A stretch of DNA of 12,399 nucleotides from a virus (taxonomy: Duplodnaviria; Heunggongvirae; Uroviricota; Caudoviricetes). The first letter of the stretch is position 1. Each line of letters starts with the position of its first letter. Of the stretch, positions 1 through 12,399 are shown piece by piece. The DNA lies in the IMG/VR virus record IMGVR_UViG_2751185956_000002, positions 1-12,399 of that record. One strand, written 5' to 3'. The position numbers were made by a program, and so were the translations under genes. The notes under the pieces are model-generated. The model saw only the letters and a program-made list of their open reading frames with translations, made no database searches and had not been told where the DNA came from.

Positions 1-879
1 AAACGTTTTATCCTGCGTCCAGGCGTTGTACCACGGTGTATCTGTAATTTTAAATAACTCTCCCTGGATAAAATCTTCAGAAGCATAAAAAAGAGGCTGG
101 CCCGGTATTCTCTCAAATAAAAAACGAGCATTTTTAAATCGACTGACATCCGGAAGAGTTGATACTTTAAAAGTAAGCCCTAATCCGTCAATTTTATAAC
201 CTGGAGATGAGGCTTCAAGGCACGCGCTTATTGCAGTGGAGTCGTCATTTATACCATCACCAACAGCTCCAAAATCTTTGGGGCTAATAGCATCACGCAT
301 TTTATCCTGGAACGTTCGGTACACAGCCCCAGAACCATACTGAATAAACCAACCAAAACCACCAACAACCCCGGCAATTGCAGCATCAACATAATTACGC
401 ATTGAGCGATTATTTACAGCGTCCTGCTCAAATGATGGATCTGCAAGGTTAGAAATTTTGTTTTGCTTTGCATCGTAATATTTTGCAAGCAGAGAGGGCT
501 TCATCAATGCACGTCTGAACCACCCAAAACATTGCTGGATCAGCATCGTCAGGTAGTCAAAGGCATCTTCATGCACTTCGGGGAAAAATTTTCCCTGATT
601 GCGAAGGTCTGTCTCCTGCACTACATCAAGCACACGATCTATCGTAATTCGCCATCCAGTAGCAAGCGGAGACGGAAGAACCACAGAACCGCCACTATAA
701 GTGCCCGCCCCAGTTACCGTATAACCGGTATCCAGGACCAATTCTGTTACGTTCCCGTTCAGGTCAGACACCTGAACAACCAGGTCTGATTTTCTGAAAA
801 TTCGAAAAGTATACGGAAACGATGTCGTAACGCCGTTACCGGTGTATTCGTTGTGGTCAACTTCGGTTGAGACCGTCAT
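1..879 (-). CDS. Tailspike / tail fibre protein, N-terminal 293 codons only (gene continues beyond window start)
   Basis: ATG at 879-877 preceded by GGAG with a 7-nt spacer; the frame is open to position 1. Translation begins MTVSTEVDHNEYTGNGVTTSFPYTFRIFRKSDLVVQV. Around residue 200 the stretch SPKDFGAVGDGINDDSTAIS resembles the start of the right-handed beta-helix (pectate-lyase-like) receptor-binding domain of tailspikes. The first ~150 aa look like a particle-attachment domain (recollection, not searched). Confidence 0.75.
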   Translation of the reverse strand, partial: MTVSTEVDHNEYTGNGVTTSFPYTFRIFRKSDLVVQVSDLNGNVTELVLDTGYTVTGAGTYSGGSVVLPSPLATGWRITIDRVLDVVQETDLRNQGKFFPEVHEDAFDYLTMLIQQCFGWFRRALMKPSLLAKYYDAKQNKISNLADPSFEQDAVNNRSMRNYVDAAIAGVVGGFGWFIQYGSGAVYRTFQDKMRDAISPKDFGAVGDGINDDSTAISACLEASSPGYKIDGLGLTFKVSTLPDVSRFKNARFLFERIPGQPLFYASEDFIQGELFKITDTPWYNAWTQDKTF

Positions 880-982
880 GTTAAATCTCCAGATAGTCGC
901 AGCACCCGTTGCGCCGCATATCTGGTTATTCTATTACCTGAAAAACCACATATGGATAAAAAGACTATAAATACCAATAGAT

Positions 983-999
983 ATTACCTTTCGGGTAAT
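983..999. promoter_or_regulatory. Operator-like palindrome A: ATTACC-TTTCG-GGTAAT
   Basis: Perfect 6-bp inverted arms with a 5-bp spacer. TTGCAA (1000-1005) lies immediately to the right, so on the minus strand the palindrome forms the 17-bp spacer of a possible leftward promoter pointing at the tailspike gene (-10 would be TATCTA, weak). Same core as sites B and C. Confidence 0.45.
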
Positions 1000-1074
1000 T
1001 TGCAAAACGTGCTGGATAGCAAACAAATTATTTGTTACTGTATAAACATACAGTTATTGCATGGAGAAGATAAG

Positions 1075-1332
1075 ATGCAGCAGTATCACTATCCACTGGA
1101 AGACGGATTTACCGAAAGGATTCACACGCCGGGAGGCGTCAGGTCACTGGTGGAGGGATCGCACTTGATGAAATTACTCCGGGATCTCGATAAGGATGGA
1201 TTTAATGTCGATGGCCCACTTGCCGAACTGACTGCACTGATTAACTACGTCACCAGCTCACAGATGTCTATGCAGGATCTGCAAACACATCTCGACTATT
1301 GTGCCGAACAATTACGAAAACAAACCAGATAA
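1075..1332 (+). CDS. Small protein (85 aa), stand-alone paralog of the antirepressor C-terminal domain
   Basis: ATG 1075 with GGAG 8 nt upstream. Preferred over the ORF-track start at 952, which has no RBS and would put palindrome A inside the coding sequence. Residues ~4-80 align with residues ~139-214 of the 218-aa antirepressor (shared H.P.GV..L.E.S.LM.LL..L..DG..V.G..AELT, then D.QTH..Y), roughly 40% identity by eye. Confidence 0.55.
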   Translation: MQQYHYPLEDGFTERIHTPGGVRSLVEGSHLMKLLRDLDKDGFNVDGPLAELTALINYVTSSQMSMQDLQTHLDYCAEQLRKQTR

Positions 1333-1335
1333 GGT

Positions 1336-1380
1336 TTGCAATTACCAAATGGAGTGCTTATATTTACCTTTGCGGTAAAT
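1336..1380 (+). promoter_or_regulatory. sigma70-like promoter (-35 TTGCAA 1336-1341, 17-bp spacer, -10 TATATT 1359-1364) with operator-like palindrome B (ATTTACC-TTTGC-GGTAAAT, 1362-1380) over the predicted start site
   Basis: Hexamers and spacing read directly. The palindrome begins inside the -10, the classic arrangement for repression. Palindrome B is itself nested inside a larger inverted repeat, GGAGTGC (1351-1357) / GCACTCC (1388-1394). Confidence 0.4.
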
Positions 1381-1491
1381 TTACATCGCACTCCTCTTGT
1401 GCCATAGTAATCGGGCACTGGCAAAATCCAGTGCCGGGATTGGTCTCCCGGATTACTAAGTGGCGCATACCACGCCAGACGTGGTTTTTTT
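1371..1491 (+). ncRNA. Candidate small structured RNA or attenuator-like leader (~120 nt) running from promoter B to an intrinsic terminator
   Basis: No credible ORF with an RBS in this stretch. It contains an 8-bp outer stem (TAGTAATC 1405-1412 / GATTACTA 1451-1458) enclosing a perfect 8-bp hairpin (GGCACTGG-CAAAAT-CCAGTGCC, 1414-1435) and a second hairpin (GGGA-TTGGTC-TCCC, 1436-1449, extendable to CCGGGA/TCCCGG), then the terminator at 1469-1491. Boundaries are inferred. Confidence 0.25.
1469..1491 (+). terminator. Rho-independent terminator-like hairpin
   Basis: Stem ACCACG / CGTGGT with loop CCAGA, immediately followed by a run of seven T (1485-1491). The stem is only 6 bp, so strength is modest. 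Confidence 0.45.
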
Positions 1492-1649
1492 ATGCGTATA
1501 GCACAGTCATGCCAGAATTATGGTGGGCTGAATGGGGGTCCGAAAGGACGCCGGTACCACTTAGGCCGGTAAGACCAACTCCGTTCAGTTCACCACCATC
1601 TGATTGGTCTCAGCGGTGGTGATGTAATTCGCTAAGTGGAGACGCCATC

Positions 1650-2306
1650 ATGAACGCTCAACTCATCCCCGTATTCAACGGCACTATATCTAACGAAACA
1701 GCCCTACTTTGTAATGCCCGCGATCTGCACGCTTTTTTAGGTGTTAAAAAGGTGTTTGCAGCATGGATTACAAATCGCATATCAGAATACGAATTCATTG
1801 AAAATCAAGACTATATTTTGCTTTCCAATTTGGGAAAGCAAACATCTGGTAGAGGCGGCCACAACCGCAAAGAGTACCACCTCACCCTTGATACAGCCAA
1901 AGAGCTGGCGATGGTCGAGCGTAACGAAAAAGGTCGTCAGGTACGACGCTACTTCATTGAATGCGAGAAACGTTTAAGACAACAAGAAACAAAAGTGGAG
2001 AAGGTCTTGTCAGGCTTCATGCCCGCCATTATGGAGGCGATCAAGCTGGAAGACAAAAAAGAATACAGTGCCCCGCTGAAGCCCGGCTACCGCAGCCTGA
2101 TTCATTCGCCGTCTGGTGTTCTCGGCCTGACGGAGAACTCACTGCTGATGAATCTGCTGAACCAGTTACAGGAAGACGGGCACGACGTATCGGGCGCGGC
2201 GGCGGAGCTGACCACCATGTTCTGCTACATCGTCGGTGTGAGCAAATGCCTGCGTGATATCCAGACGCACGCGGAGTACATCAACGACAAGGCAGGGTTC
2301 TTCTGA
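1650..2306 (+). CDS. Phage antirepressor, 218 aa (AntA-like N-terminal domain plus a C-terminal domain shared with the 85-aa ORF)
   Basis: ATG 1650 with GGAG 8 nt upstream; stop TGA 2304-2306. The N-terminal ~110 aa (LIPVFNG, then [76 protein letters not shown]) match my recollection of the AntA/AntB antirepressor family; not database-verified. Confidence 0.7.
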
Positions 2307-2314
2307 CGGGCGGT

Positions 2315-2341
2315 GGCACAGGGATGTGCCTTTAAATAATT
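2315..2341 (+). terminator. Weak terminator-like hairpin after the antirepressor gene
   Basis: Stem GGCACA / TGTGCC with loop GGGA (2315-2330), followed by the interrupted T/A-rich run TTTAAATAATT. Could equally be a processing or pause site. Confidence 0.25.
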
Positions 2342-2350
2342 CTGTACAGA

Positions 2351-2394
2351 TTGCAGACTGTGGGTGAATAGCGTACTATTACCTTAAAGGTAAA
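2351..2394 (+). promoter_or_regulatory. sigma70-like promoter (-35 TTGCAG 2351-2356, 17-bp spacer, -10 TACTAT 2374-2379) with operator-like palindrome C (ATTACC-TTAAA-GGTAAA, 2378-2394) over the start site
   Basis: Same architecture as promoter B: -35 TTGCAR, 17 bp, -10, with the palindrome starting inside the -10. The palindrome also abuts the Shine-Dalgarno sequence of the 55-aa ORF. Confidence 0.45.
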
Positions 2395-2405
2395 GGAGGC
2401 GCGAT

Positions 2406-2573
2406 ATGACAGCGTTGAAAAATCGTACTCAGCACAATGAACAAGCCAAGCAATGCTGGGATGTCATTGGAAAAGTTATGCTTGGCCGCGCAAGCAAAGA
2501 GCGCGACAAGGATATGGTTTACCAGACAGGAACATCTTTCAGCGACTTCAAGGCGGCATTTCGCTCCAAATAG
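2406..2573 (+). CDS. Small protein, 55 aa, function unknown (candidate regulator or partner of the downstream AT-rich gene)
   Basis: Not in the ORF track (too short). ATG 2406 is preceded by a near-consensus Shine-Dalgarno AAAGGAGG (2392-2399) with a 6-nt spacer; stop TAG 2571-2573. Translation MTALKNRTQHNEQAKQCWDVIGKVMLGRASKERDKDMVYQTGTSFSDFKAAFRSK. Confidence 0.45.
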   Translation: MTALKNRTQHNEQAKQCWDVIGKVMLGRASKERDKDMVYQTGTSFSDFKAAFRSK

Positions 2574-2593
2574 AAGCACATCAGGAGTTTTCC

Positions 2594-3034
2594 TTGAAGT
2601 TTAACATTAGAATATCTAATAGTTTTCTACATGGGGAAAGCAACACCCCTTTCGCTGTAGACGGACCTTTCCTTACTGATGATGAAATAAAAATCATACA
2701 AAGTTTTTTAGAGGATGTTGCCAATGGAAGGGCGCTTGTTGGAAAAAACAAGCCCTCGTGGGTTGATGATAACCATGATAAAATTCCCGGCTCAGACAAT
2801 TATGAGCAAGAGAATTATTGGCATTATCATTGTGGGCCAACATGGTATCCAAACACATTTAAGAATTATACCATTAACTTAAATTTCAACCCTGGCGGAA
2901 GGCATTCTAATGAATGCATTCATTATGCAAAAAATGATAATGAAATTGTCATTGTTGGATTTTCAAGAGAACACATACCTTTCCTTTCATCAGATGGAAA
3001 CAACAATCCGCTTTTTAATGATGAAGAAGAATAG
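2594..3034 (+). CDS. AT-rich moron protein, 146 aa if started at TTG 2594 (193 aa if ATG 2453 is used); His/Cys-rich C-terminal motif, function unknown
   Basis: The frame is open from 2453 to TAG 3032-3034, but the only in-frame ATG (2453) has no RBS and lies inside the 55-aa ORF in another frame. TTG 2594 is preceded by AGGAG (2583-2587) with a 6-nt spacer. Composition drops sharply to AT-rich from ~2590 to 3030. Contains WHYHCGPTWYPNTFKNYTINLNFNPGGRHSNECIHY. Confidence 0.5.
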   Translation: MKFNIRISNSFLHGESNTPFAVDGPFLTDDEIKIIQSFLEDVANGRALVGKNKPSWVDDNHDKIPGSDNYEQENYWHYHCGPTWYPNTFKNYTINLNFNPGGRHSNECIHYAKNDNEIVIVGFSREHIPFLSSDGNNNPLFNDEEE

Positions 3035-3056
3035 CCCGCGCTGCGGGCTTTTTTGT
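3033..3056 (+). terminator. Strong rho-independent terminator
   Basis: Perfect 7-bp GC-rich stem AGCCCGC / GCGGGCT with loop GCT, followed by TTTTTT, starting at the stop codon of the AT-rich gene. Confidence 0.75.
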
Positions 3057-3085
3057 GGACGAAACAAAAGTCAGTGCTACACTCA

Positions 3086-3113
3086 TTGACGCCACATTGA
3101 GGTGGCTTATAGA
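3086..3113 (+). promoter_or_regulatory. sigma70-like promoter candidate (-35 TTGACG 3086-3091, 16-bp spacer, -10 TATAGA 3108-3113)
   Basis: Hexamers read directly. It would give a very short leader before ATG 3127, so assignment to the downstream small ORF is tentative. Confidence 0.3.
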
Positions 3114-3126
3114 TGGAAATTTCACA

Positions 3127-3288
3127 ATGAAAAAAGCATTTGCTGCACTGTTCGTTTTGTTGTCTCTGGTAGCTTCAACTCAGGCCTTTGCCGGTCGTTG
3201 TCAGCACGACAGCGATACTGCCGCTGACGGCTCCCGCTGCGGTGGGCGTTCTGCGGATTCCCGCCCGGGTGGCGGTGGCATTCGTTAA
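3127..3288 (+). CDS. Small exported peptide precursor, 53 aa (signal peptide plus 31-aa Gly/Arg/Asp-rich mature peptide with two Cys)
   Basis: ATG 3127; stop TAA 3286-3288. The N-terminus MKKAFAALFVLLSLVASTQAFA is a textbook Sec signal peptide (basic n-region, hydrophobic core, AFA cleavage motif). Predicted mature peptide GRCQHDSDTAADGSRCGGRSADSRPGGGGIR. RBS is weak; the ORF-track GTG start at 3055 abuts the upstream terminator and is unlikely. Confidence 0.4.
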   Translation: MKKAFAALFVLLSLVASTQAFAGRCQHDSDTAADGSRCGGRSADSRPGGGGIR

Positions 3289-3311
3289 AAACAAGGCCGC
3301 GAAAGCGGCCT
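3283..3311 (-). terminator. Rho-independent terminator for the minus-strand operon (after the lipoprotein gene)
   Basis: Stem AGGCCGC / GCGGCCT with loop GAAA (3294-3311). On the minus strand it is followed by TGTTTTTAA (reverse complement of 3285-3293), 9 nt after the lipoprotein stop codon. Confidence 0.5.
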
Positions 3312-3319
3312 GTGACATG

Positions 3320-3700
3320 TCACGCAACGCAATTATTACCGCGCCATGTAACATTTTTAATAATCTTATCAGCACCAAACTCAACGTAAACAGAGCAACT
3401 GAAATGGAGTGTATAACCGCCATCAGTTGTTGCGTATGTGTTTGAATATATAGTATTACCAATTAGATTAGACGTAGTATTATACGTTGTGGTTTGTGGT
3501 ACGTTATAACTACCAGAGCTTGAGTAAACATACACTCTGTTTCCATCTGGAGATGTAAGCTCTCCCTGAGGATACCCCCACTGCTGAACCATTGCGTCTA
3601 TACTCTGCCCGCGCCACGTAAGCATATTTCTTTCAAACTGTGCAGCTGACTGGCATCCAACGAGAAGCATAAATCCAAAAATCAAAAATACTTTTCTCAT
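3320..3700 (-). CDS. Predicted outer-membrane lipoprotein, 126 aa (moron; candidate superinfection-exclusion or receptor-masking factor)
   Basis: ATG 3700-3698 with AGGGG 5 nt upstream; the ORF-track start (GTG 3736) is less likely. N-terminus MRKVFLIFGFMLLVGCQSAAQ gives a lipoprotein signal with lipobox LVGC and Gln at +2 (not Asp, so outer-membrane sorting is expected). AT-rich, unlike the neighbouring virion genes. Stop TGA 3322-3320. Confidence 0.7.
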   Translation of the reverse strand: MRKVFLIFGFMLLVGCQSAAQFERNMLTWRGQSIDAMVQQWGYPQGELTSPDGNRVYVYSSSGSYNVPQTTTYNTTSNLIGNTIYSNTYATTDGGYTLHFSCSVYVEFGADKIIKNVTWRGNNCVA

Positions 3701-3785
3701 AATTACCCCTATCATGGAAAAACAGCACCAATCCACAAATTAACTAGTTATTTTATTATTCTTCCGAACAATACAATTCCGAATA

Positions 3786-3908
3786 CTACAAAGCCGAACC
3801 ATGCCGCTGCACGCAACAGAGATTCCAATTGAAACCCATTTTTATCAAAATGTATGAATAGCATAAAAACGCTGCACATATTAGTACAATAAAAGTTATT
3901 TGAACCAT
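3786..3908 (-). CDS. Small hydrophobic membrane peptide, 40 aa (not in ORF track)
   Basis: ATG 3908-3906 preceded by AAGGAG (3919-3914) with a 5-nt spacer, directly after the stop of the 824-aa gene. Translation MVQITFIVLICAAFLCYSYILIKMGFNWNLCCVQRHGSAL: an N-terminal ~21-residue hydrophobic helix and a short Cys-rich tail. Stop TAG 3788-3786. Confidence 0.4.
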   Translation of the reverse strand: MVQITFIVLICAAFLCYSYILIKMGFNWNLCCVQRHGSAL

Positions 3909-3919
3909 CATATCTCCTT

Positions 3920-6394
3920 TTATTGCGGAGTGACATCCTGTGGTCGCCACCAGTATGTCTGGTTAAACTCTTTCTTCGAACGTTGCTCCATTTTACGCAA
4001 ATAGCCTGGTGAAAAATACTCCTGCATCTGGTTAAAGATCATGTGATCGAGAGCCGCCTTCAAGTACCAGAGATTCGCACCAGGCATCAAACCTTTCCCC
4101 AGCTTCACCAGATCACCACCAGTCTGCTCACTCTTCCCTTCCACAGCATTTAACGGTATGCCCTGAGCAATCTTCACTACGTCATCAACCAGACCAGCTA
4201 CCGGGCCAAGCATCGACGCCAGCGCGCCGCTTCCGTACCTAGTGTGATCTGACAATAAAAAGTCACCGTAAAGGCCAAGACCACCACCTTTCAGTAGAGC
4301 ACCAAGCCAGAATTTTGCGGCATCTTCTCCTGTCATCTCTCGAGGATTACGACCAGACGCAAGGTCGTTAAGTTGCTGCGACAAAGCGCCAAGAATGGTC
4401 GTACTGGCAATAAACGTCGCAATATATGCCGCACGCCCACCAGCAGACGGCATACCCATAGCGCGTGACCAGTGACGCATAACAACCGAGATAGGGAACG
4501 ATTTAAACAGGAAAACACTTCTCGTTAATTCACCTTTCCATGTTCCACGCTGAATACCAGAACCGGTTATCAGTTGCTCACGTGCTCCCGGTGTAATAAC
4601 AGCCATATCAACTTCTTCAGTTACGGCACCGAGCAGTTTACGCATTGCCTCAAATTTCACGCGTTCAGGCTCACCAAGATGTTTAACTGCTGAATCAGGG
4701 ATACGCATAATGCTTTCCGGTGTCAGCATCGTATTATTACCGTTCCCCCAGTCCTCCTGTTTCGCCAGCTTCCATACGCTCCAGTCTGTGTCAGTAATCC
4801 CTTTGCTTTTCAGGATACGAAAATCAGAGTCATCGAGGCTACGAAGGTCTGGTGTCCGTGACACTACTTCTCCCAGGCTTCCCATCATGGTTACGCCATA
4901 GGCGCGCTTGTGCGCATCTGACCATGCTGTAAGCCCACTGGCACGCATTACCGCCGTTGCCGCCCAACGAGACACTGACGGCCCCATATTATCCATCGCC
5001 CAGCGGTTAACGCTGCCAAGTAGAGATTCCATCGCCAGACCAGCGCGGCGCGCCCGCGCAAGTTCTGTACGGTTCGTTGGGTCCATAGCTTCAAGCTGGT
5101 TGCGGAATAACTGGTTCATTGGAAGGTTGGTAACCTTCGCAGACAGATACATGGTTCCAAGATCAGAGAACGATGACAGCAACGCGGATCCGAGTCTGCT
5201 GGCAACCAGCCAGTTGCGGATATTGTCAGACCATCGCGCGATGTGCGGATTCGCTACAGGCTGTGTCTTTCCGGAAATAAAGTTGTACAGATTCTCTGTG
5301 TTGTTCGCCAGCCGCTCGACTTTACCGGTTTTACTCGGGTTAGCTGTTGCCGTTTCTGCCTTCACCTGATCAAGAAGAGAGCGGAAAACATGATCGGGGT
5401 TTGGGCCATATGTTTCCACCAGTGCAATATCTTTACTGATACCTTCCAGGTGACAGACCATGATTTCCCATAGAGAGCGATCGCCATAAAGTTGCTGATA
5501 TTGCAGATAGGAATCTGCATCTTTGAAATGTATCTGTCGTGATGCATTACCACGGTTAGCACGTGCGCCGGAAATTCGCATTCCGGTATCAGTAAGCTTA
5601 TTCAGCCCACCAGTAGCGATCGTGTTATAAGCCTCTCCAAGAAATGAAGACAACTCGGCATCGTTCATCAGTTGTCCATCGGCTCGGATATAATATTTGC
5701 GATCCAGCTTACCTATAACATCGCTAACCCACTTATCCTTTGATACTGCCCCAACCTTTTCCATAGAATGATGTTGAGGGATCCCCCAGTTTTCGAGATA
5801 GCCAATGTCCCCACCAGCATCATTAAACCGGCGGCGCAGCAGCTCTGTAACTTCTCTCCACGCCTTAGCACCGTTTCTTGCTTTAGCATTGCCAGTATTT
5901 TGCCCCCGCATTTCATATACCAGGTCACGTACGCCCGCTTCATCTTCAAACAGACCAAAAAAGCGAGGATCAACTGCTTCGAATGCCTCCTGCAATTGAC
6001 TCAATGCATAATCACGGGTGGCTTTTGTTCTGGATTCAACAGAGAGGAAATTAGATTTACCGTCTGCATTAAAAGCTATAGTACGGTTAAGAGCGCCAAG
6101 TTTCCCATCAGCCCCTTGATAGCTATTGATAAATTTATCCAATCTCTGACGCGCGGCTATAGTGAGAGCCACACGACGTTTATTTAATGCCGCTTCTCGC
6201 TGTAATTCTTCAGATGCCAATTGTGCTGCTCGATATAGCCGCTCTGATTCGGAAAGTTGTCGCCACGACATAGTGTCATCACGAGCAATGGAGCGCATAT
6301 TTCGATAAATGCGGTCTTCAATGTTCTGTATTTCTCGCGCCGTTAACATGCGCTGCGCCGCCTGCTGAACCGCTTGTATACATTCCTGTCTCAT
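3920..6394 (-). CDS. Large virion internal-core / DNA-ejection-type protein, 824 aa
   Basis: Uninterrupted ORF; ATG 6394-6392 with a GAGG-containing RBS; stop TAA 3922-3920. Third of three consecutive large proteins (837, 600, 824 aa) between small virion genes and the tailspike, the arrangement typical of podophage ejection/core proteins. Function is inferred from size, order and context only. Confidence 0.75.
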   Translation of the reverse strand: MRQECIQAVQQAAQRMLTAREIQNIEDRIYRNMRSIARDDTMSWRQLSESERLYRAAQLASEELQREAALNKRRVALTIAARQRLDKFINSYQGADGKLGALNRTIAFNADGKSNFLSVESRTKATRDYALSQLQEAFEAVDPRFFGLFEDEAGVRDLVYEMRGQNTGNAKARNGAKAWREVTELLRRRFNDAGGDIGYLENWGIPQHHSMEKVGAVSKDKWVSDVIGKLDRKYYIRADGQLMNDAELSSFLGEAYNTIATGGLNKLTDTGMRISGARANRGNASRQIHFKDADSYLQYQQLYGDRSLWEIMVCHLEGISKDIALVETYGPNPDHVFRSLLDQVKAETATANPSKTGKVERLANNTENLYNFISGKTQPVANPHIARWSDNIRNWLVASRLGSALLSSFSDLGTMYLSAKVTNLPMNQLFRNQLEAMDPTNRTELARARRAGLAMESLLGSVNRWAMDNMGPSVSRWAATAVMRASGLTAWSDAHKRAYGVTMMGSLGEVVSRTPDLRSLDDSDFRILKSKGITDTDWSVWKLAKQEDWGNGNNTMLTPESIMRIPDSAVKHLGEPERVKFEAMRKLLGAVTEEVDMAVITPGAREQLITGSGIQRGTWKGELTRSVFLFKSFPISVVMRHWSRAMGMPSAGGRAAYIATFIASTTILGALSQQLNDLASGRNPREMTGEDAAKFWLGALLKGGGLGLYGDFLLSDHTRYGSGALASMLGPVAGLVDDVVKIAQGIPLNAVEGKSEQTGGDLVKLGKGLMPGANLWYLKAALDHMIFNQMQEYFSPGYLRKMEQRSKKEFNQTYWWRPQDVTPQ

Positions 6395-6399
6395 TTAAT

Positions 6400-8202
6400 T
6401 TAACCTCTCAAGAAACACGCCACAGCGACATCAAACAGGCTGGAATCCTGTATTGCCTGCTCACTTTCCCTGTTCGCTTCATCCAGTGCTTCACGCGCAC
6501 TGCGCGATTGTGGATTACCATCATCATCCAGCACGGTGATTATCATGTCAGGTGATTCAAGCAGCGAGTCTTCAGCTATGCGCAAATCAATATCTCCTGC
6601 CTGATCTGACATCATTTTTTGTTCTGCCTGTTGCAATATTTTATCAGGCTCAAAAGGAGCTACTTCGTCTGGCGTCCTGACCTCTGCTGTTTTATAGAAT
6701 GAAACAGCCTGAGCATTAAGTTCACTTTCTGCCTGCTGTCTCCGAGCCAGTTCTGCTCGAGCTTCAAAAAACTGACCGCCAGGCTCATGCGGTGCCAACG
6801 CGTTACGAGAAAATTCCAGGCGTTCTTGTGCCTGCCGGATTCGTTGGTCAATATCGCGAAGTCTGGCCTGTTTATCTGATCGAGCACGAGATAAAGCCTT
6901 ACCGCTACCGGCTGGATCTTCTGCAAGAATTTGTGCGCGCTGTTCAGTGAGATTTTCAATAATTCGTTGGCTATTAGCGATTTCAGACTGGTAAACCTGT
7001 CTATCGCCACGCGGCAAAAGCTGCGCGGCCTGTTCTTCAAGCAACCGATTTTCTATAGCGCGCGCCGTTACTCCATCATCTACAGATGACAGAGCCTCAT
7101 TAACTGCCTGAGACAGCAGACTCTTGCGTCCAGGAATTTCACTGAAAGATGCAGACTCAACAATGCTGGCAACGTCTACAGGTCTCCCCTGGCTAACATC
7201 AGACATGGCTTTTCGCAGAGCCTGAATGTGCGAATTACGCGAAAGCACGTTGATCGGCACGCCGGGAGCAATATCAATTTCAGCATGATGAGCGGCATTC
7301 GCCGCCAGTGCAGCATCGATATCAACTGGTGAAAAATTTGGTGCGCTTGTAGACTCGCCGCGAGAGTTAATAAATCTGCCGACACCACCAAACGCCACCC
7401 CAAGAACAGCATCAATAGCAATTGCCTGTCGATCCAACACATCATACTGGTTAGCCATTTCGCTATAGCCACCATCACGAAGCGTTTTTGCAGTAAGCCC
7501 ACGCTGTGCCATACCGAACGCAATATTTGTACCTGCGGCATAGGCAATATCTGGCGTTGCACGTACTGCTGTTGCTGCGGCGCGTCGCACTGAACTTTCA
7601 CCCGTCCGCGCAAGCTGAGCCGCCACACCTTCCGCCAGCGCACCACCAGCACGTAACCCGAGGCTCATAGGGATCAGTGTTCCGGCACCAGCAGTAATAC
7701 CCTGCACTAATCCCGCTTCCTGCGCCGTCCTGAAATCAACACCCTGTGCTGTAAGCCGTTCAAACTCAGAAAAACCCTGTAGAGAAGTTACCGCCGCAGC
7801 ACCTCCGACCGGACCACCGAGCGTTGTACCGACAACAGCCTGCCCGCCCATATCGAACAACCCATAAAGGACCTGCCCGGCGGTTCCGGTTGTCGCGGCA
7901 TCAGGCGTCAGCCGCTTAACCTGCTGCTCTGCTAGTTTTCTCTGCTCAGCAATGTATGAAACTGAAGTGTCATTGATCGAGGTGTTTTCGTTAACAAACT
8001 GAGCAATCGGGGATACGATTTTATCCATCCCTGCCCATAGCAACTGATCTGGCTTTGCCACCAGCCCGGAGTACAAACCAGACAATGCCGCTCCTACAGC
8101 ATTGTCGAAAAAACCAACATCGCTGTTAAAGCCAGCTGGATTTGATGCTGCTTCGTCAAGCTGCTGATTCTGGTTTACTGGATTAAGGCCAAAGTAACTC
8201 AT
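6400..8202 (-). CDS. Virion internal / DNA-ejection-type protein, 600 aa (Gly/Ala-rich N-terminal half, coiled-coil-like charged C-terminal half)
   Basis: ATG 8202-8200 overlaps the stop of the upstream gene (ATGA). The N-terminal half is rich in Gly/Ala hydrophobic segments (e.g. GTTLGGPVGGAAAVTSLQG, GITAGAGTLIPMSLGLRAGGALAEGVAAQLA), suggestive of membrane insertion. The C-terminal half is Arg/Glu/Gln/Ala-rich with heptad-like character. Confidence 0.75.
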   Translation of the reverse strand: MSYFGLNPVNQNQQLDEAASNPAGFNSDVGFFDNAVGAALSGLYSGLVAKPDQLLWAGMDKIVSPIAQFVNENTSINDTSVSYIAEQRKLAEQQVKRLTPDAATTGTAGQVLYGLFDMGGQAVVGTTLGGPVGGAAAVTSLQGFSEFERLTAQGVDFRTAQEAGLVQGITAGAGTLIPMSLGLRAGGALAEGVAAQLARTGESSVRRAAATAVRATPDIAYAAGTNIAFGMAQRGLTAKTLRDGGYSEMANQYDVLDRQAIAIDAVLGVAFGGVGRFINSRGESTSAPNFSPVDIDAALAANAAHHAEIDIAPGVPINVLSRNSHIQALRKAMSDVSQGRPVDVASIVESASFSEIPGRKSLLSQAVNEALSSVDDGVTARAIENRLLEEQAAQLLPRGDRQVYQSEIANSQRIIENLTEQRAQILAEDPAGSGKALSRARSDKQARLRDIDQRIRQAQERLEFSRNALAPHEPGGQFFEARAELARRQQAESELNAQAVSFYKTAEVRTPDEVAPFEPDKILQQAEQKMMSDQAGDIDLRIAEDSLLESPDMIITVLDDDGNPQSRSAREALDEANRESEQAIQDSSLFDVAVACFLRG

Positions 8203-10712
8203 TGCGGAATATCTCCGGAGAATCTCTGACGCTTCTGTGTCAGATTAAGAACAACGGGAGAACCATCATCTTTCAGCAGATAACCAGTACCAAGTTTCAC
8301 CAGGTACTGACTATCGCCGTAACTTTGCAAACCATACTGACCAGGCGGTGTTTTTATCCCGGAGCCGACAACTTGTTCATTCCAAGCCTGATTAACCTGC
8401 TTATCGAATTGCTCTGCAGACATTCCCCACGGCAAAAGGACATTCCCCATTCCGTTATAGTCATGCACGCCACCTGTAGCTACGTTAACAGCCTGTTTCC
8501 AGACATCATTGTCAATTTCGCCTGATACCACGCCTTTTTTCGCCATCACACCAGCGTAATAATCCTTTGCGATCTCGTATGCCATTGATGCGCCCTGAGC
8601 GTCACCAGCAAATGCATCCTTCACCATGTCAGAAAACTCAAGGCGAAGATCAGCATCTTTAGGCATCGGAATACCTTTCGCATCATCAGTACCTTTACGA
8701 GCCGCCGCGCCAGCAAGAATTGTCTGCGCAGCGGTTTCAGGAGACACGGAAACATCCGGATTAAACCAGTTTTTTTCTGCCAAAATACCACCAGGCTTAT
8801 CCATCAGTATCCCGGCAACGGCAGCAGATGGAGCGTTGGCACTGATCTGCTGTAGTGCTGACATATACACCTGCCCACCACCAGTGCTCTGCCTGATGGT
8901 ATCGAGATATGCTGCCTGTTGGGAAACTGGAGCATCACGAAAGAAAACACCGATCTGATTGGCCTCGTCTTTGGAAAAGAACGTCAGTAGAGTGCCATAT
9001 GACTTAGCAAGGTCACTGACCTGAGCGGCACGCAAGGCAACGCTCTGTCCAAAGTTATCCTTATTGCTCATGTCGATAGGCTTTGCCTGTCCGGAGGCAA
9101 GAGAGAACTGCACAGGATCCGACTGCCGCTGCTTTATCACCTGATTTGCAGCCGAAACAACGTTGTCATAAAGAGTTGCGCGTGCCGCATACCCCTCCCC
9201 TGTATCACCAGTATCCGGGCGTAATTGCTCAACATATGCTGTAATGCTGCTTGTCGGCATGTTGCGGAAAGAGCCTATATACTGTCCGGCGATCTGCGTA
9301 TTCTTAAACTCGGTATATCGCAGGTTTCCTTCTCTGACTCCATAAGCTGCAATAAAATCATCCTCACCAGGTGGGTTAGGAAATTCAATGCCACGCATAT
9401 ACGCAGCCGTCGCATCGCGAACCCGGCTGTCGAGCATCGTTTTATATTCAGCCTGCTGTTGTCTGGCTAGTGCATCAGTCTGTCGCAACACGCTGGCCTG
9501 ATCTGATTCACTTAAAGCATCGAACCAGGCTACACCGGTATAACGTTTATTTTTTGTCGGTAGCTGAGAAAGCCCCAGCGCAGCACTAACACCTGCAGTT
9601 AACTGCTGATCACTGTATGGCTGGCTACCGTTTTCATGATGGATAATGGCTGCACAAAGCGCCTTCAGGGTATCAGGATTTGATGCATCGAGAGGCTCAT
9701 CAGCAGAAACGCCAAGTTGTTCGCACACTGCTTTGATATACGACATAGTGTCATTTTTATCAGTAGGCGGTGCCCAGCGATTAATTATCTCGCTGACGGT
9801 ATCAATACCCTGCCGCTGATACGACATCAGGTTCCGCCCTAATGCACGAATACCGTGTTCAGGGGTTTCGAATTTGGCAAAGCGACCATCATCACCAGTC
9901 TGCCCAACCCACGGATTAGTTTTGCTGTATTCAAGATTGCCGGGGTTATTGTTGCGTATACCGCGGGTACGATCGGAAGAGCCACTATCTGCTACAGCAC
10001 GGCGAGAACCAGCAGCAGTATCGCTTAACTCTCCGTTTTGCTGTCTTACCTGAAGATAGTTTGCTCCAATAGCATTTTGAGCAGTTGCTTTTGCTGTTGC
10101 TTCTTTAAACTCGATTTTCTTGGCCTGGATTTGCTCGTCACTCCAGCCATGTGCAATGCCGTAATCCTCAATTTGCTGGAAAGTTTGCTTATTAGCCAAT
10201 ACGTATGCGGCGTTGTCGCCATACAATGCTGCGGCATTTTTACCATTGTTCAGCAGCGTAGCCTGAAACTGGCCTTCTTCGTAGGCATTTATTTGCCCTA
10301 TCTCGTGCCGCCCGGCCTGCGTAGTGAACTGAATGCGCTGCTGCTGCGCCTGCTGCATGAAAGCATTACGAGCCTGTTCATCCGGCAGCGACATAGCCAG
10401 TTGTTCGACCTGAGCATCAAACTGCTGCGTATACTCCTGACCTTTTCCAATAGCATTTTTCCCTTTCAGGTTAAGCAAACCTGTTTCAGGGTTATTCAGC
10501 AGATCGCTGCTTATCTGGCTTAAGCTAAGAGAAGCATCCTGAGCCATAGCAACATTCGCACGCTGTTTTGCCTGCGCAATAATACCTGCATATTGCTCTG
10601 CAACATCGCCAAGTACATCACCGACATTTGGTGTCTGAAACGATGAGAATCCCTGCGTCGAAATCCCTCTGCTCTGAACCTGACGGCCCGATGTTGTTGG
10701 TACAACTGGCAT
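8199..10712 (-). CDS. Large virion internal / DNA-ejection-type protein, 837 aa, with an embedded conserved-looking globular domain (residues ~251-380)
   Basis: ATG 10712-10710 with GGGGA RBS 12 nt after the upstream stop; stop TGA 8201-8199. Contains GIRNNNPGNLEYSKTNPWVGQTGDDGRFAKFETPEHGIRALGRNLMSYQRQGIDTVSEIINRWAPP, which I associate with phage structural proteins carrying a cell-wall-acting domain, but cannot verify. Confidence 0.75.
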   Translation of the reverse strand: MPVVPTTSGRQVQSRGISTQGFSSFQTPNVGDVLGDVAEQYAGIIAQAKQRANVAMAQDASLSLSQISSDLLNNPETGLLNLKGKNAIGKGQEYTQQFDAQVEQLAMSLPDEQARNAFMQQAQQQRIQFTTQAGRHEIGQINAYEEGQFQATLLNNGKNAAALYGDNAAYVLANKQTFQQIEDYGIAHGWSDEQIQAKKIEFKEATAKATAQNAIGANYLQVRQQNGELSDTAAGSRRAVADSGSSDRTRGIRNNNPGNLEYSKTNPWVGQTGDDGRFAKFETPEHGIRALGRNLMSYQRQGIDTVSEIINRWAPPTDKNDTMSYIKAVCEQLGVSADEPLDASNPDTLKALCAAIIHHENGSQPYSDQQLTAGVSAALGLSQLPTKNKRYTGVAWFDALSESDQASVLRQTDALARQQQAEYKTMLDSRVRDATAAYMRGIEFPNPPGEDDFIAAYGVREGNLRYTEFKNTQIAGQYIGSFRNMPTSSITAYVEQLRPDTGDTGEGYAARATLYDNVVSAANQVIKQRQSDPVQFSLASGQAKPIDMSNKDNFGQSVALRAAQVSDLAKSYGTLLTFFSKDEANQIGVFFRDAPVSQQAAYLDTIRQSTGGGQVYMSALQQISANAPSAAVAGILMDKPGGILAEKNWFNPDVSVSPETAAQTILAGAAARKGTDDAKGIPMPKDADLRLEFSDMVKDAFAGDAQGASMAYEIAKDYYAGVMAKKGVVSGEIDNDVWKQAVNVATGGVHDYNGMGNVLLPWGMSAEQFDKQVNQAWNEQVVGSGIKTPPGQYGLQSYGDSQYLVKLGTGYLLKDDGSPVVLNLTQKRQRFSGDIPQ

Positions 10713-10724
10713 CTTATTATCCCC

Positions 10725-11264
10725 TTATCGACCGGTTGGAGTGCCAACAGCAGCAGAAATCGGCGCAGCCTTCTGAGAGAACGGGCTCCACGTTCCGCCG
10801 CCCATCTGGTATGCACCGTATGCTTTTAGTGGTGCCGTTAACAAAGTGCTGGTCATCGATGATTTAGCAGCCGACTGAGCAGCAGCCCCCTGTGCCTGAG
10901 CATTCATTCCCTGAACCTGATACCCATATGCCTCACGCTGAGCATTATTCACTGTCGTTAACGCATCAAGAGTGCCGAACTGAGCATTATCCGCAAAAAC
11001 GTCAAGAGCTGTTCCGCTACTTAATTCCGCACCGGTAGCCCCCATAGTGGCCGCCGCAGTGCCTGAGCGTTGACGCATTTCACGACGACGCTGATCCGCT
11101 TCAATATTCCCACGATTGATTGAATCCTGTGCCTGAGCTTCAGCAATTTCAGCATTCCGATCAGCTATGGCTGACTGGTATTTTGCCTGCTTGCTCTGGC
11201 TGTACATTGACGCGGCTGTGGATGCCACTGTGACGGCAACCAAAGCGATGGCTGGGTTACACAT
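10725..11264 (-). CDS. Small membrane-anchored virion protein, 179 aa
   Basis: ATG 11264-11262 overlaps the upstream stop (TAATG); RBS GGAG 8 nt upstream. N-terminal hydrophobic segment MCNPAIALVAVTVASTAASMY, then an Ala/Gln-rich charged region and a Gly-rich C-terminus. Resembles the small membrane-associated internal proteins that precede large core proteins in podophages (analogy only). Confidence 0.65.
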   Translation of the reverse strand: MCNPAIALVAVTVASTAASMYSQSKQAKYQSAIADRNAEIAEAQAQDSINRGNIEADQRRREMRQRSGTAAATMGATGAELSSGTALDVFADNAQFGTLDALTTVNNAQREAYGYQVQGMNAQAQGAAAQSAAKSSMTSTLLTAPLKAYGAYQMGGGTWSPFSQKAAPISAAVGTPTGR

Positions 11265-11728
11265 TATTTTCTCTCCATGTGAAATCTGTGGAAATTAAGA
11301 CCAAGAGCACCATAAGGCGCGGCTTCTTCAAGCCTGAATCCAAGCCAGTGCAGCCATGCTTTGGCAACATGGTTTCGCTCGTCGACGTAGTTTTCCAGGC
11401 GCGGATAAACTGCCAGCATCTGCTGCAATACAGGGCGGCAGTGGCGAAGAAATGTCTTCTGATATTTTTCAATACGGCTGGTTCCTACCAGCCAGGGAGT
11501 ACCATTGCCACCGATCATTGACGCCGGAGATACGCCAAACATGGTTACCAGTTCTCCGTTCGCAAATCCTGACCAGGCCATAGTCGCAGTGCGAAGACCA
11601 ACACGCAGCGCATCTTCGGTAGTCATCAGTGATACCGCATACAGTTCGTCAATATCAGCCTGACGAACATCCGGCAAAATCATCTGAAGATGCTCTTCGG
11701 TTGCGGGAATAATTTGAACATCGATCAT
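11264..11728 (-). CDS. Virion morphogenesis-associated protein, 154 aa, function unknown
   Basis: ATG 11728-11726 overlaps the stop of the upstream gene (ATGA), indicating translational coupling within the virion operon. The C-terminal stretch NHVAKAWLHWLGFRLEE loosely resembles the conserved C-terminal motif of GNAT-type acetyltransferases (weak, unverified). Confidence 0.65.
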   Translation of the reverse strand: MIDVQIIPATEEHLQMILPDVRQADIDELYAVSLMTTEDALRVGLRTATMAWSGFANGELVTMFGVSPASMIGGNGTPWLVGTSRIEKYQKTFLRHCRPVLQQMLAVYPRLENYVDERNHVAKAWLHWLGFRLEEAAPYGALGLNFHRFHMERK

Positions 11729-12264
11729 CAGAACCCACCAACAGTAAGGCGAGGAATAACGGCAAGAACAGACAGCGGCAACGGATCAAGCTGACGGATT
11801 TTTACACGTCCGTTTTTGCCCCAGTTACTGTCCAGTTTCACTTCTACTTTTCCGGTAGCATCATCAACAGGATCATCGTAGAACTCGAATTCACGCTGTG
11901 GATATTCGTACCATTTACCGCCGGGCGTAGTCGCCCAGATGCCGCGACTGGCATTCACAACCAGAGTAACGGACGGGATCACCTGTTTTTTGTCCAGCAG
12001 CGTTTCCTGTCCGTTAATGTTGATATCCAGTGTTTCGAATTCAGCAGTTATTGGCAGGCCGATGTGCACTACAGCCCCCGGTGATTCCAGCGTGACGGCA
12101 CCTCCGGAAACCACTTTCTGTGGTTCCACGTTCGCATCAGAGAGAATGTTTACGGTCTGGCCTTCAAGATGAGACAGGCCTCCAAATGTCCGGCGCGCCA
12201 TCTGCCAGTTCGTGGTGGCCACATTCCTGAGGGATGGCGGGACGTTCCTGTTAGCACGAACCAC
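11728..12264 (-). CDS. Virion morphogenesis-associated protein, ~178 aa, function unknown; start uncertain
   Basis: Frame open from the stop at 12321-12319 down to TGA 11730-11728. The most upstream start is GTG 12264-12262 (no clear RBS); the alternative ATG 12201-12199 also lacks an RBS. The protein sequence is globular-looking and directly coupled to the downstream gene. Confidence 0.6.
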   Translation of the reverse strand: MVRANRNVPPSLRNVATTNWQMARRTFGGLSHLEGQTVNILSDANVEPQKVVSGGAVTLESPGAVVHIGLPITAEFETLDININGQETLLDKKQVIPSVTLVVNASRGIWATTPGGKWYEYPQREFEFYDDPVDDATGKVEVKLDSNWGKNGRVKIRQLDPLPLSVLAVIPRLTVGGF

Positions 12265-12365
12265 TACAGCGGTATTGCTGGTTACAGAAATAATGTCGCA
12301 ACGTAGATGATATGACCTTTATATACTCACTATAGCATTGGTGGGATATTCCAGAGGAGGTCATC

Positions 12366-12399
12366 ATGCATTCGGAAAATATTGCGGCTTACGTCGGGC
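12366..12399 (+). CDS. Possible 5-prime end of a plus-strand gene running off the window (MHSENIAAYVG...)
   Basis: ATG 12366 preceded by a strong Shine-Dalgarno AGAGGAGG (12353-12360) with a 5-nt spacer. Only 11 codons are visible. A minus-strand reading frame entering from beyond the window edge could instead end at 12364-12362 (TGA), so this is ambiguous. Confidence 0.3.
   Translation, partial: MHSENIAAYVG

Follow-up and report, generated by a model that had tools for sequence, protein, structure and literature searches.

The locus considered here lies in a 12.4-kb stretch of viral DNA (IMG/VR record IMGVR_UViG_2751185956_000002, positions 1 to 12,399; hereafter the window), in which an accessory island carries three copies of the palindrome TTACC-N5-GGTAA, and the question that it raises is which protein reads these copies and which genes they control. 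A first-pass annotation of the sequence had proposed that one dimeric repressor acts at three promoters, with two small open reading frames (ORFs) of the island, of 55 and 85 codons, as candidates for its gene. Direct reading upheld the palindromes and their positions: ATTACC-TTTCG-GGTAAT at 983-999 (site 1), ATTTACC-TTTGC-GGTAAAT at 1362-1380 (site 2), and ATTACC-TTAAA-GGTAAA at 2378-2394 (site 3). The exact pattern occurred only at these three places (984-998, 1364-1378, and 2379-2393), while 200 dinucleotide-preserving shuffles of the window gave 0.01 expected copies, the same chance estimate as in the first pass. Allowing one mismatch returned the same three sites (0.16 expected). All three were intergenic, and their central bases were T, T, and A, respectively; in the palindrome set assembled across phages, the central base of the 57 exact sites was A or T in 112 of 114 strand-reads. 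Our conclusion is that the three palindromes are very probably operators of Rep, the main immunity repressor of the prophage, the gene of which lies outside the window. The palindromes are nonrandom and stand at promoters, and most likely they tie several transcription units together through one repressor.

The window belongs to an epsilon15/phiV10-like (Uetakevirus) prophage. Positions 298 to 3324 were 99.1% identical to Escherichia phage phiv142-3, and positions 1 to 297 diverged from it. Matches to the region were present in 866 of 5426 complete E. coli genomes, with coverage of at least 80% of the region in 79. In the phiv142-3 genome, the palindrome occurred exactly at 10 places, all intergenic, and with one mismatch at 5 more. 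Three of the copies lay between the divergent cro-like and repressor genes, and two others, 62 bp apart, flanked a TTGACA-17-AATTAT promoter just past the repressor gene. We compared six genomes (phiv142-3, phiV10, epsilon15, SPC32H, Klebsiella phage BUCT711, and Enterobacter phage Tyrion), and a de novo count of every perfect 5-Nx-5 palindrome ranked TTACC-N5-GGTAA first in each of them, with 8 to 11 copies per genome in orthologous positions. These positions were the OL-like and OR regions, the sequences upstream of the small terminase gene and of the portal operon, the ant/tail-fibre intergenic region, the promoter beside ant, and the sequences upstream of the lysis cassette and of int; a further pair preceded the gene that follows the replication genes (a DUF1064-family or a Holliday-junction resolvase gene, depending on the phage). 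The palindrome, for which conservation in related phages had been suggested as a check, was present in six of six genomes. In phiv142-3 and its five relatives the operators of the rep/cro switch and of the early promoters have this same sequence, and all three window sites have the form of a Uetakevirus Rep operator without a mismatch.

Part of this set has already been labelled. The epsilon15 RefSeq record (NC_004775.2) marks seven palindromes as protein_bind 'repressor', which is 7 of approximately 15 sites, and one of them, flanked by gp19 and the tail-fibre gene at 19895-19911 (ATTACCTGTAAGGTAAT), corresponds in alignment to site 1 of the window. Site 1 is therefore orthologous to an annotated repressor-binding site, and, to judge from such comparisons, the window sites belong to an annotated kind, the Rep operators of epsilon15-like phages. 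Sites 2 and 3 had no annotated ortholog, and conservation of these sites was seen among phiV10, Tyrion, phage TL-2011b, and IMG/VR loci; epsilon15 and SPC32H lack the RNA-antirepressor module and the cargo slot in which these sites stand (described below), so there is no annotated counterpart in those two phages. The phiV10 and phiv142-3 records carry no annotation of the palindromes, and literature text searches for the motif returned nothing relevant, with the epsilon15 genome and SPC32H papers falling outside the literature searched.

The repressor of phiv142-3 was a full-length homolog of SPC32H Rep (PDB 5D50_A, E 4e-42); Rep is a protein of the SPC32H/epsilon15 gp38 type with an N-terminal helix-turn-helix domain. 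It was identical in phiv142-3, phiV10, and ZX5. Four Rep classes could be distinguished (100, 78, 45, and 42% identity), and all of them were associated with TTACC-N5-GGTAA and kept the N-terminal helix NLVNRW. This helix was invariant even though the classes were only 42 to 78% identical overall, which fits the invariant half-site. At sites 1, 2, and 3 alike, the half-sites were conserved while the 5-nt spacer and the flanks varied. Across the six genomes, 11 of 26 close operator pairs were spaced exactly 62 bp start to start, and one more was spaced 63 bp; in phiv142-3 these pairs were 29902/29964 and 33006/33068, with equivalents in the other five genomes. In such pairs one member lay over the transcription start and the other upstream of the -35 hexamer. 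Further recurring spacings were 17 to 18, 30, 48, and 76 bp, and the spacings as a whole are consistent with a tetramer that bridges two sites on one helix face. Rep is reported to bind palindromic DNA as a tetramer and to be dismantled by a tetrameric antirepressor (PMC9638917; PMC9986798). Of the earlier proposal of one dimeric repressor for three promoters, the single shared repressor most likely stands, and the dimer is not supported (PMC9638917). In the relative ZX5, which has an identical Rep, the mRNAs of holin and endolysin fell by more than 99.9% when Rep was overexpressed (PMC9782041). We infer the assignment of the window sites to Rep from annotation and comparative sequence; they would be part of the approximately 10 to 15 operators that are spread over every genome of the genus, and through them three transcription units of the window would depend on lysogeny.

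Sites 2 and 3 were placed in the same way relative to a promoter. Promoter P1 (1336-1364, plus strand) reads TTGCAA(1336-1341)-17-TATATT(1359-1364), with 11 of 12 matches to TTGCAA/TATAAT, and promoter P3 (2351-2379, plus strand) reads TTGCAG(2351-2356)-17-TACTAT(2374-2379). In both, the last T of the -10 hexamer is the first T of TTACC, which confirmed the common register noticed in the first pass. The leftward early promoter and its promoter-proximal operator showed the same register, and, in IMG/VR loci, it was kept at sites 2 and 3 across several different promoter backbones. Since both operators cover the -10 hexamer and the start point, repression by occlusion of RNA polymerase is a straightforward inference. 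Rep bound at site 2 would block P1 by covering its -10 hexamer and start point, and Rep bound at site 3 would cover those of the cargo cassette promoter.

Site 2 lies between two tandem promoters. It covers the -10/+1 region of P1 and adjoins the -35 hexamer of P2 (1380-1408, plus strand), which reads TTTACA(1380-1385)-17-CATAGT(1403-1408) and is the native promoter of an isrK-like RNA. The site was conserved in phiV10 and Tyrion, and the spacers found in the window and these relatives were TTTGC, GCAAA, and TCACA. A scan of IMG/VR with the isrK stem identified 120 loci with 123 instances, and the palindrome was located at a fixed distance of -50 from the stem in 116 of the 123; 114 of these 116 were in loci with Uetakevirus markers. 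The six instances without such markers had an unrelated promoter of the TTGACA-17-TATAGT type and no palindrome. From this co-occurrence, the palindrome travels with the Rep-type phage backbone and not with the RNA cassette. P2 is the positional homolog of the TTGACA-17-TATAGT promoters of the non-Uetakevirus contexts, and its TTTACA and TGTGCCATAGT were invariant in 82 distinct upstream variants. The sequence of P1 varied between phages, yet its register was kept.

The unit downstream of site 2 is predicted to be controlled by RNA as well as by Rep. The predicted start of P2, at approximately 1415, coincides with the beginning of the Rfam isrK match (1415-1491, plus strand; RF01394, 67.7 bits against a gathering score of 50), which overlaps the C4 a1/b1 target match at 1402-1454 and ends in an intrinsic terminator (1469-1485) followed by a T run. 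The match to RF03163 stayed under the gathering score of that family (39.9 against 46.7 bits). A C4-type antisense RNA follows at 1516-1600 on the plus strand (RF01695, 61.2 bits; gathering score, 45). The heptamer TTGGTCT, present in b1 within 1402-1454 and in b2 at approximately 1604-1612, pairs with AGACCAA in the C4 loop. This pairing showed a three-way compensatory change, being TTGGTCT/AGACCAA in the window and Tyrion and TTGGCGT/ACGCCAA in phiV10 (20220-20560), and thus the RNA control is probably functional; the pattern also suggests that these phages differ in the specificity of their RNA immunity, as P1 and P7 do. Two features of P1-type immI were present, a C4 antisense RNA upstream of ant and, for the b elements, the C4 target repeats. 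The gene itself (1650-2306, plus strand) encodes a 218-residue antirepressor in which an AntA N-terminal domain (PF08346, E 4e-26) is fused to an Ant-like C-terminal domain. Its C-terminal 77 residues (137-213) were homologous to Ant (PDB 5D50_E, E 4.6e-14), and residues 137 to 210 were 42% identical to the product of the 85-codon ORF described below. From this homology, the phage carries a pair of antirepressors that share one Rep-binding fold, and these appear to differ in their control, one being gated by LexA and the other by Rep and RNA. P1 and P2 together would drive the isrK/C4 RNA leader and this second antirepressor.

Site 3 heads a slot in which the genes differ between phages. In TL-2011b the promoter and operator of site 3 were kept (spacer, TCAAG), while the cargo was different and included a YafO-family toxin, and in EC.W1-9 the operator headed yet another cargo. 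P3 was conserved in TL-2011b and many IMG/VR loci. The IMG/VR loci contained 78 exact operators just past the ant gene, in 26 promoter contexts, and approximately 10 visibly different downstream cargo sequences were found among the promoter contexts listed. In the window, the first cargo gene is the 55-codon ORF (2406-2573, plus strand; phrog_8607), which has AGGAGG 6 nt before its ATG, and it is followed by an AT-rich ORF of 146 codons (2594-3034, plus strand; phrog_5954) that ends at a bidirectional terminator (3033-3049). The cargo at 2406-3034 had a GC content of 0.33 to 0.39. Searches of the cargo ORFs against Pfam, PHROGs, and PADLOC matched only phage families without an assigned function and gave zero defence matches. 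Overall, the slot downstream of the antirepressor held many unrelated cassettes, including a YafO-family toxin pair, in TL-2011b (2999-3773), EC.W1-9 (3244-4081), and the 120 IMG/VR loci, and nearly all were headed by a Rep operator. With the operator in this place, the cargo would be silent in the lysogen and expressed at induction.

Site 1 is located where the tail-fibre and small antirepressor genes diverge. When this region was aligned in the six phages, the half-sites were conserved and the spacer was variable. In 71 distinct IMG/VR variants, site 1 was fixed 54 nt before a LexA box; TTACC was invariant, the right half-site was GGTAA in 60 and GGTGA in 11, and 11 spacer variants were found. 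The LexA (SOS) box, TACTGTATAAACATACAGT at 1036-1054, matches the consensus exactly (0.02 expected) and was conserved in six of six phages. It precedes the 85-codon ORF (1075-1332, plus strand), which was found in all six genomes and encodes a small antirepressor Ant of the SPC32H type (88% identity to SPC32H Ant; PDB 5D50_E, 'Anti-repressor protein', E 4.1e-47). Both features of the SPC32H-type LexA-controlled antirepressor, Ant homology and the LexA box, were thus found, and SOS induction of this prophage probably proceeds through the antirepressor and not through repressor cleavage. In SPC32H lysogens, SOS induction through Ant reportedly works, and Rep is said to be inactivated by antirepressors, not by RecA-stimulated cleavage.

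The direct target of site 1, whether the ant promoter or the tail-fibre promoter, is the least clear part of the assignment. The hexamer TTGCAA does adjoin the site at 1000-1005, as had been noted in the first pass, and on the plus strand it may be a -35 element toward the small ant gene; site 1 would then possibly be centred at approximately -45. If the -10 hexamer of ant is instead TATAAA inside the LexA box, the centre of site 1 would be at -62, the recurring distance of distal operators. The hexamer was TTGCA(A/T) in five of the six phages and was not conserved in Klebsiella phage BUCT711. On these assignments site 1 would lie approximately 45 to 62 bp upstream of the ant start; in the other direction, the candidate start of the tail-fibre gene would be located approximately 70 bp downstream of the site. 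A minus-strand promoter with the palindrome as its spacer (TTGCAA-17-ATCTAT), which had been proposed to face the tailspike gene, was rejected: the -10 hexamer is poor and was not conserved in relatives, where AAAGCA and AAATGT were found in its place.

The tail-fibre side has a conserved block of its own at 928-957 on the minus strand (ATCCATATGTGGTT...GGTAATAGAAT), with a candidate -10 hexamer, TAGAAT (933 to 928). Within it, ATTCTATTACC and AACC..ATATG.AT were invariant in the six phages and highly conserved in the 71 IMG/VR variants, and a promoter role (TCCATA-17-TAGAAT) is predicted. The gene that this promoter would serve is the N-terminal part of a tail-fibre or tailspike gene (1-879, minus strand; start codon at 879) with an endosialidase N-terminal extension (PF12218, E 1e-32). 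This region also includes the start of the endosialidase beta-propeller (PF12217), and the domains suggest a K1-capsule-specific tailspike. A lone ATTACC half-site at 933-938 (GGTAAT on the minus strand), invariant in the six phages, overlaps the candidate -10 hexamer, and another lone ATTACC half-site at 1341-1346 lies just past the P1 -35 hexamer, within the promoter spacer; no recognisable partner half-site was found for either.

Several observations weigh against the assignment of all three sites to repression by Rep. SOS induction through Ant reportedly works in SPC32H lysogens, so that binding of Rep to site 1 cannot silence the ant promoter completely. Neither site 1 nor site 2, the latter relative to P2, covers a -10 hexamer; both lie upstream of a -35 hexamer. 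The three window sites are solo, unlike the operators of the early promoters, which have partners; no partner with fewer than three mismatches was found 17 to 18 or 62 bp from any of them. The rep gene is absent from the 12.4-kb window and, on the circular map of phiv142-3, is located approximately 27 kb from the sites, or approximately 11 kb the other way round; its presence in this prophage is presumed from near-identical relatives. Covariation of repressor and operator does not discriminate here, since all four Rep classes share the half-site. Finally, the Cro-like protein, which was conserved in six of six genomes, probably shares the sites.

The first two of these points lead to the alternative that survives best, although we regard it as unlikely, namely, that Rep is an activator or architectural factor and not a repressor at site 1 and, as regards P2, at site 2. 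Antirepressor expression would then need Rep and would switch itself off once Rep was titrated. In its favor, the operator adjoins the -35 hexamer in both cases (GGTAA-N1-TTGCAA at site 1 and GGTAA-N1-TTTACA at site 2/P2), and a like geometry, GGTAA-T-ATTGCT, is found at the operator beside the weak promoter of the repressor gene itself, for a total of three promoters. The operator centre would be at approximately -44/-45, near the position of lambda CI at PRM. The ant promoter also must fire in a lysogen that contains Rep, if SOS induction works as reported for SPC32H. However, the -35 assignments are insecure: the hexamer beside site 1 is not conserved in BUCT711, and the use of TATAAA in the LexA box as the ant -10 hexamer would move the centre of site 1 to -62, the usual distance of a distal operator. 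Positive autoregulation of rep is itself only putative.

A reading in which Rep is secondary and the Cro-like protein is the main reader of the sites during lytic growth, when it would damp the antirepressor and cargo promoters, appears less probable again. In six of six genomes the 76-codon cro-like gene and rep stood in divergent orientation on either side of the triple operator, the product of the cro-like gene was better conserved than Rep (60 to 97% identity) and matched phrog_35 'transcriptional repressor', and Cro and CI share operators in lambdoid switches. However, this reading is compatible with binding by Rep as well, and the protein that has been annotated and structurally studied as a binder of the palindromic sites is Rep.

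A small local repressor encoded by the island, acting in the fashion of Mnt or Arc, is highly improbable. It was suggested by the clustering of the sites in the island and by the small ORFs that adjoin them. However, the 85-codon ORF behind the LexA box encodes the homolog of Ant, which was solved in complex with Rep (5D50_E, E 4e-47), and the 55-codon ORF was found only in phiv142-3 among the six genomes and was missing from the other five, all of which have 8 to 11 palindromes. Neither ORF had a ribbon-helix-helix or other DNA-binding Pfam match, and the palindrome is found mostly at a distance from the island, the rep/cro switch being one such place. Thus, neither of the two repressor candidates of the first-pass annotation could be retained, and local control gave way to the OR/OL operators of phiv142-3 and its five relatives. 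That the palindromes are not protein operators at all, being due to chance, RNA hairpins or terminators, or restriction-modification targets, deserves practically no weight: the sites are short and hairpin-capable and the phage family encodes DNA methyltransferases, but chance predicts only 0.01 copies, the stems of 5 to 7 bp are A/T-rich and lack a T run, a terminator scan of the window called none of them, the half-sites are fixed while the spacer varies freely, the register to the -10 hexamers is constant, and 10 of the 10 exact copies in phiv142-3 are intergenic.

The window resembles several known systems and differs from each of them. Epsilon15 and SPC32H (PDB 5D50 and 5D4Z) have an identical 17-bp palindrome, ATTACC-N5-GGTAAT, the same Rep family as phiv142-3, and the same LexA-controlled small Ant, but neither the isrK/C4-AntA module nor the cargo slot is present in them. 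The phiv142-3 operator set resembles lambda-type OR/OL in its three operators between divergent repressor and cro-like genes, its leftward early operators, and its 17-bp symmetric sites; unlike lambda, it has many outlying operators at late-region, lysis, int, ant, and cargo promoters and recurring 62-bp pairs. The immI region of phage P1 has tandem promoters, the upstream one of which carries an operator (P51a/Op51 and P51b). Like the window, it has a C4-type antisense RNA before an antirepressor operon and an operator of the main repressor at the operon promoter. P1 is similar too in having one main repressor with many dispersed operators, of which 22 C1 operators are scattered over the genome (PMC8546580). 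In contrast, P1 has an asymmetric 17-mer, ATTGCTCTAATAAATTT, as its operator and the window has a symmetric palindrome, and the window antirepressor differs from that of P1 in its SPC32H-Ant-like domain. No icd-like ORF was identified in the window, with no search aimed at the stretch between 1600 and 1650.

In the isrK-orf45-anrP region of the Salmonella prophage Gifsy-1, an isrK-family RNA with a leaky terminator likewise precedes an antirepressor-like gene on the read-through transcript (PMC4825925). Gifsy-1-like and other non-Uetakevirus contexts have a plain promoter of the TTGACA-17-TATAGT type and no TTACC palindrome; compared with Gifsy-1, the window has an extra, presumably Rep-controlled promoter and operator added upstream of the isrK RNA. 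The immI region of P22, with which the first-pass annotation had compared the island, is similar in that an antirepressor gene with control of its own adjoins the tailspike gene where the late region ends, and in that an RNA regulator takes part. However, the operator in the window belongs to the main repressor, the RNA is of the C4/isrK type and not sar, the window contains neither an mnt nor an arc gene, and no ribbon-helix-helix, Arc, or Mnt Pfam match was found among the island ORFs. For site 2, the combination of a main-repressor operator, a c4 RNA, and ant makes P1 immI the closer analog.

A second palindrome, AACCAGATAAGGTT at 1323-1336, lies directly upstream of the P1 -35 hexamer and overlaps it, and it was nearly invariant in the 82 distinct upstream variants despite at least four promoter backbones. 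Palindromes of the form AACCAnATAnGGTT were observed upstream of or over the -35 hexamer at several promoters, namely, P1, the promoter past the cro-like gene, that of the lysis cassette, and the tail-fibre side. Copies were located at 1323-1336 and 944-957 in the window, at 1985-1998 and 31890-31903 in phiv142-3, and at 24736-24749 and 33132-33145 in phiV10. The general pattern ACC-N6-GGT showed no genome-wide enrichment, and only the A/T-rich AACCAnATAnGGTT subset recurred at promoters.

Beyond the terminator of the cargo cassette, a gene at 3127-3288 encodes a 53-residue protein with a signal peptide (phrog_14503, 'membrane associated protein', moron category), which was 82% conserved in the Klebsiella phage (18339-18485). 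No Rep palindrome within one mismatch was found upstream of it, and it may be the only gene of the island that is expressed in the lysogen. Virion genes occupy the minus strand from 3320 onward. In the E. coli UTAK-6 prophage (22461-24191), an extra module stood beside the same island, consisting of a protein with an antirepressor N-terminal domain and a divergent Arc-family DNA-binding protein; this module is P22-immI-like and is additional to the Rep-controlled units.

Whether the outlying Rep operators amount to more than simple extra off-switches is a separate matter, and a purpose-built circuit of antirepressor waves, Rep adjoining -35 hexamers, and induced cargo is possible, if on balance doubtful. 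In such a circuit, antirepressor would be made in a second wave once Rep was lost, and this wave would reinforce itself and commit the prophage to induction. Rep adjoining the -35 hexamers of the ant and isrK promoters, as at its own promoter, may be positive or architectural; the tetramer may, for example, loop the DNA between the solo sites, which are separated by 380 and 1015 bp. The cargo, with its YafO-type toxins and function-unassigned genes, would be turned on only at induction or infection, the opposite of classical morons, which are expressed in the lysogen.

Taken as Rep operators, the three sites change an apparent private regulon of three promoters into part of the genome-wide operator set of the main repressor in a common family of E. 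coli prophages, and in phiV10-like prophages, where the sites are unmarked in any record, they can now receive the label of Rep operators. What is new is the predicted control by Rep of the isrK/C4-antirepressor operon, a cargo slot gated by the repressor, and the layout with two antirepressors, and phage repressors need not be understood differently on account of any of this. The prediction for the second antirepressor operon and for the cargo cassette is silence in lysogens and expression at induction, which matters for judging the roles of accessory genes, such as the YafO-type toxins, and the layout offers a testable induction circuit in which a LexA-gated antirepressor would act first and a Rep-gated one would follow.

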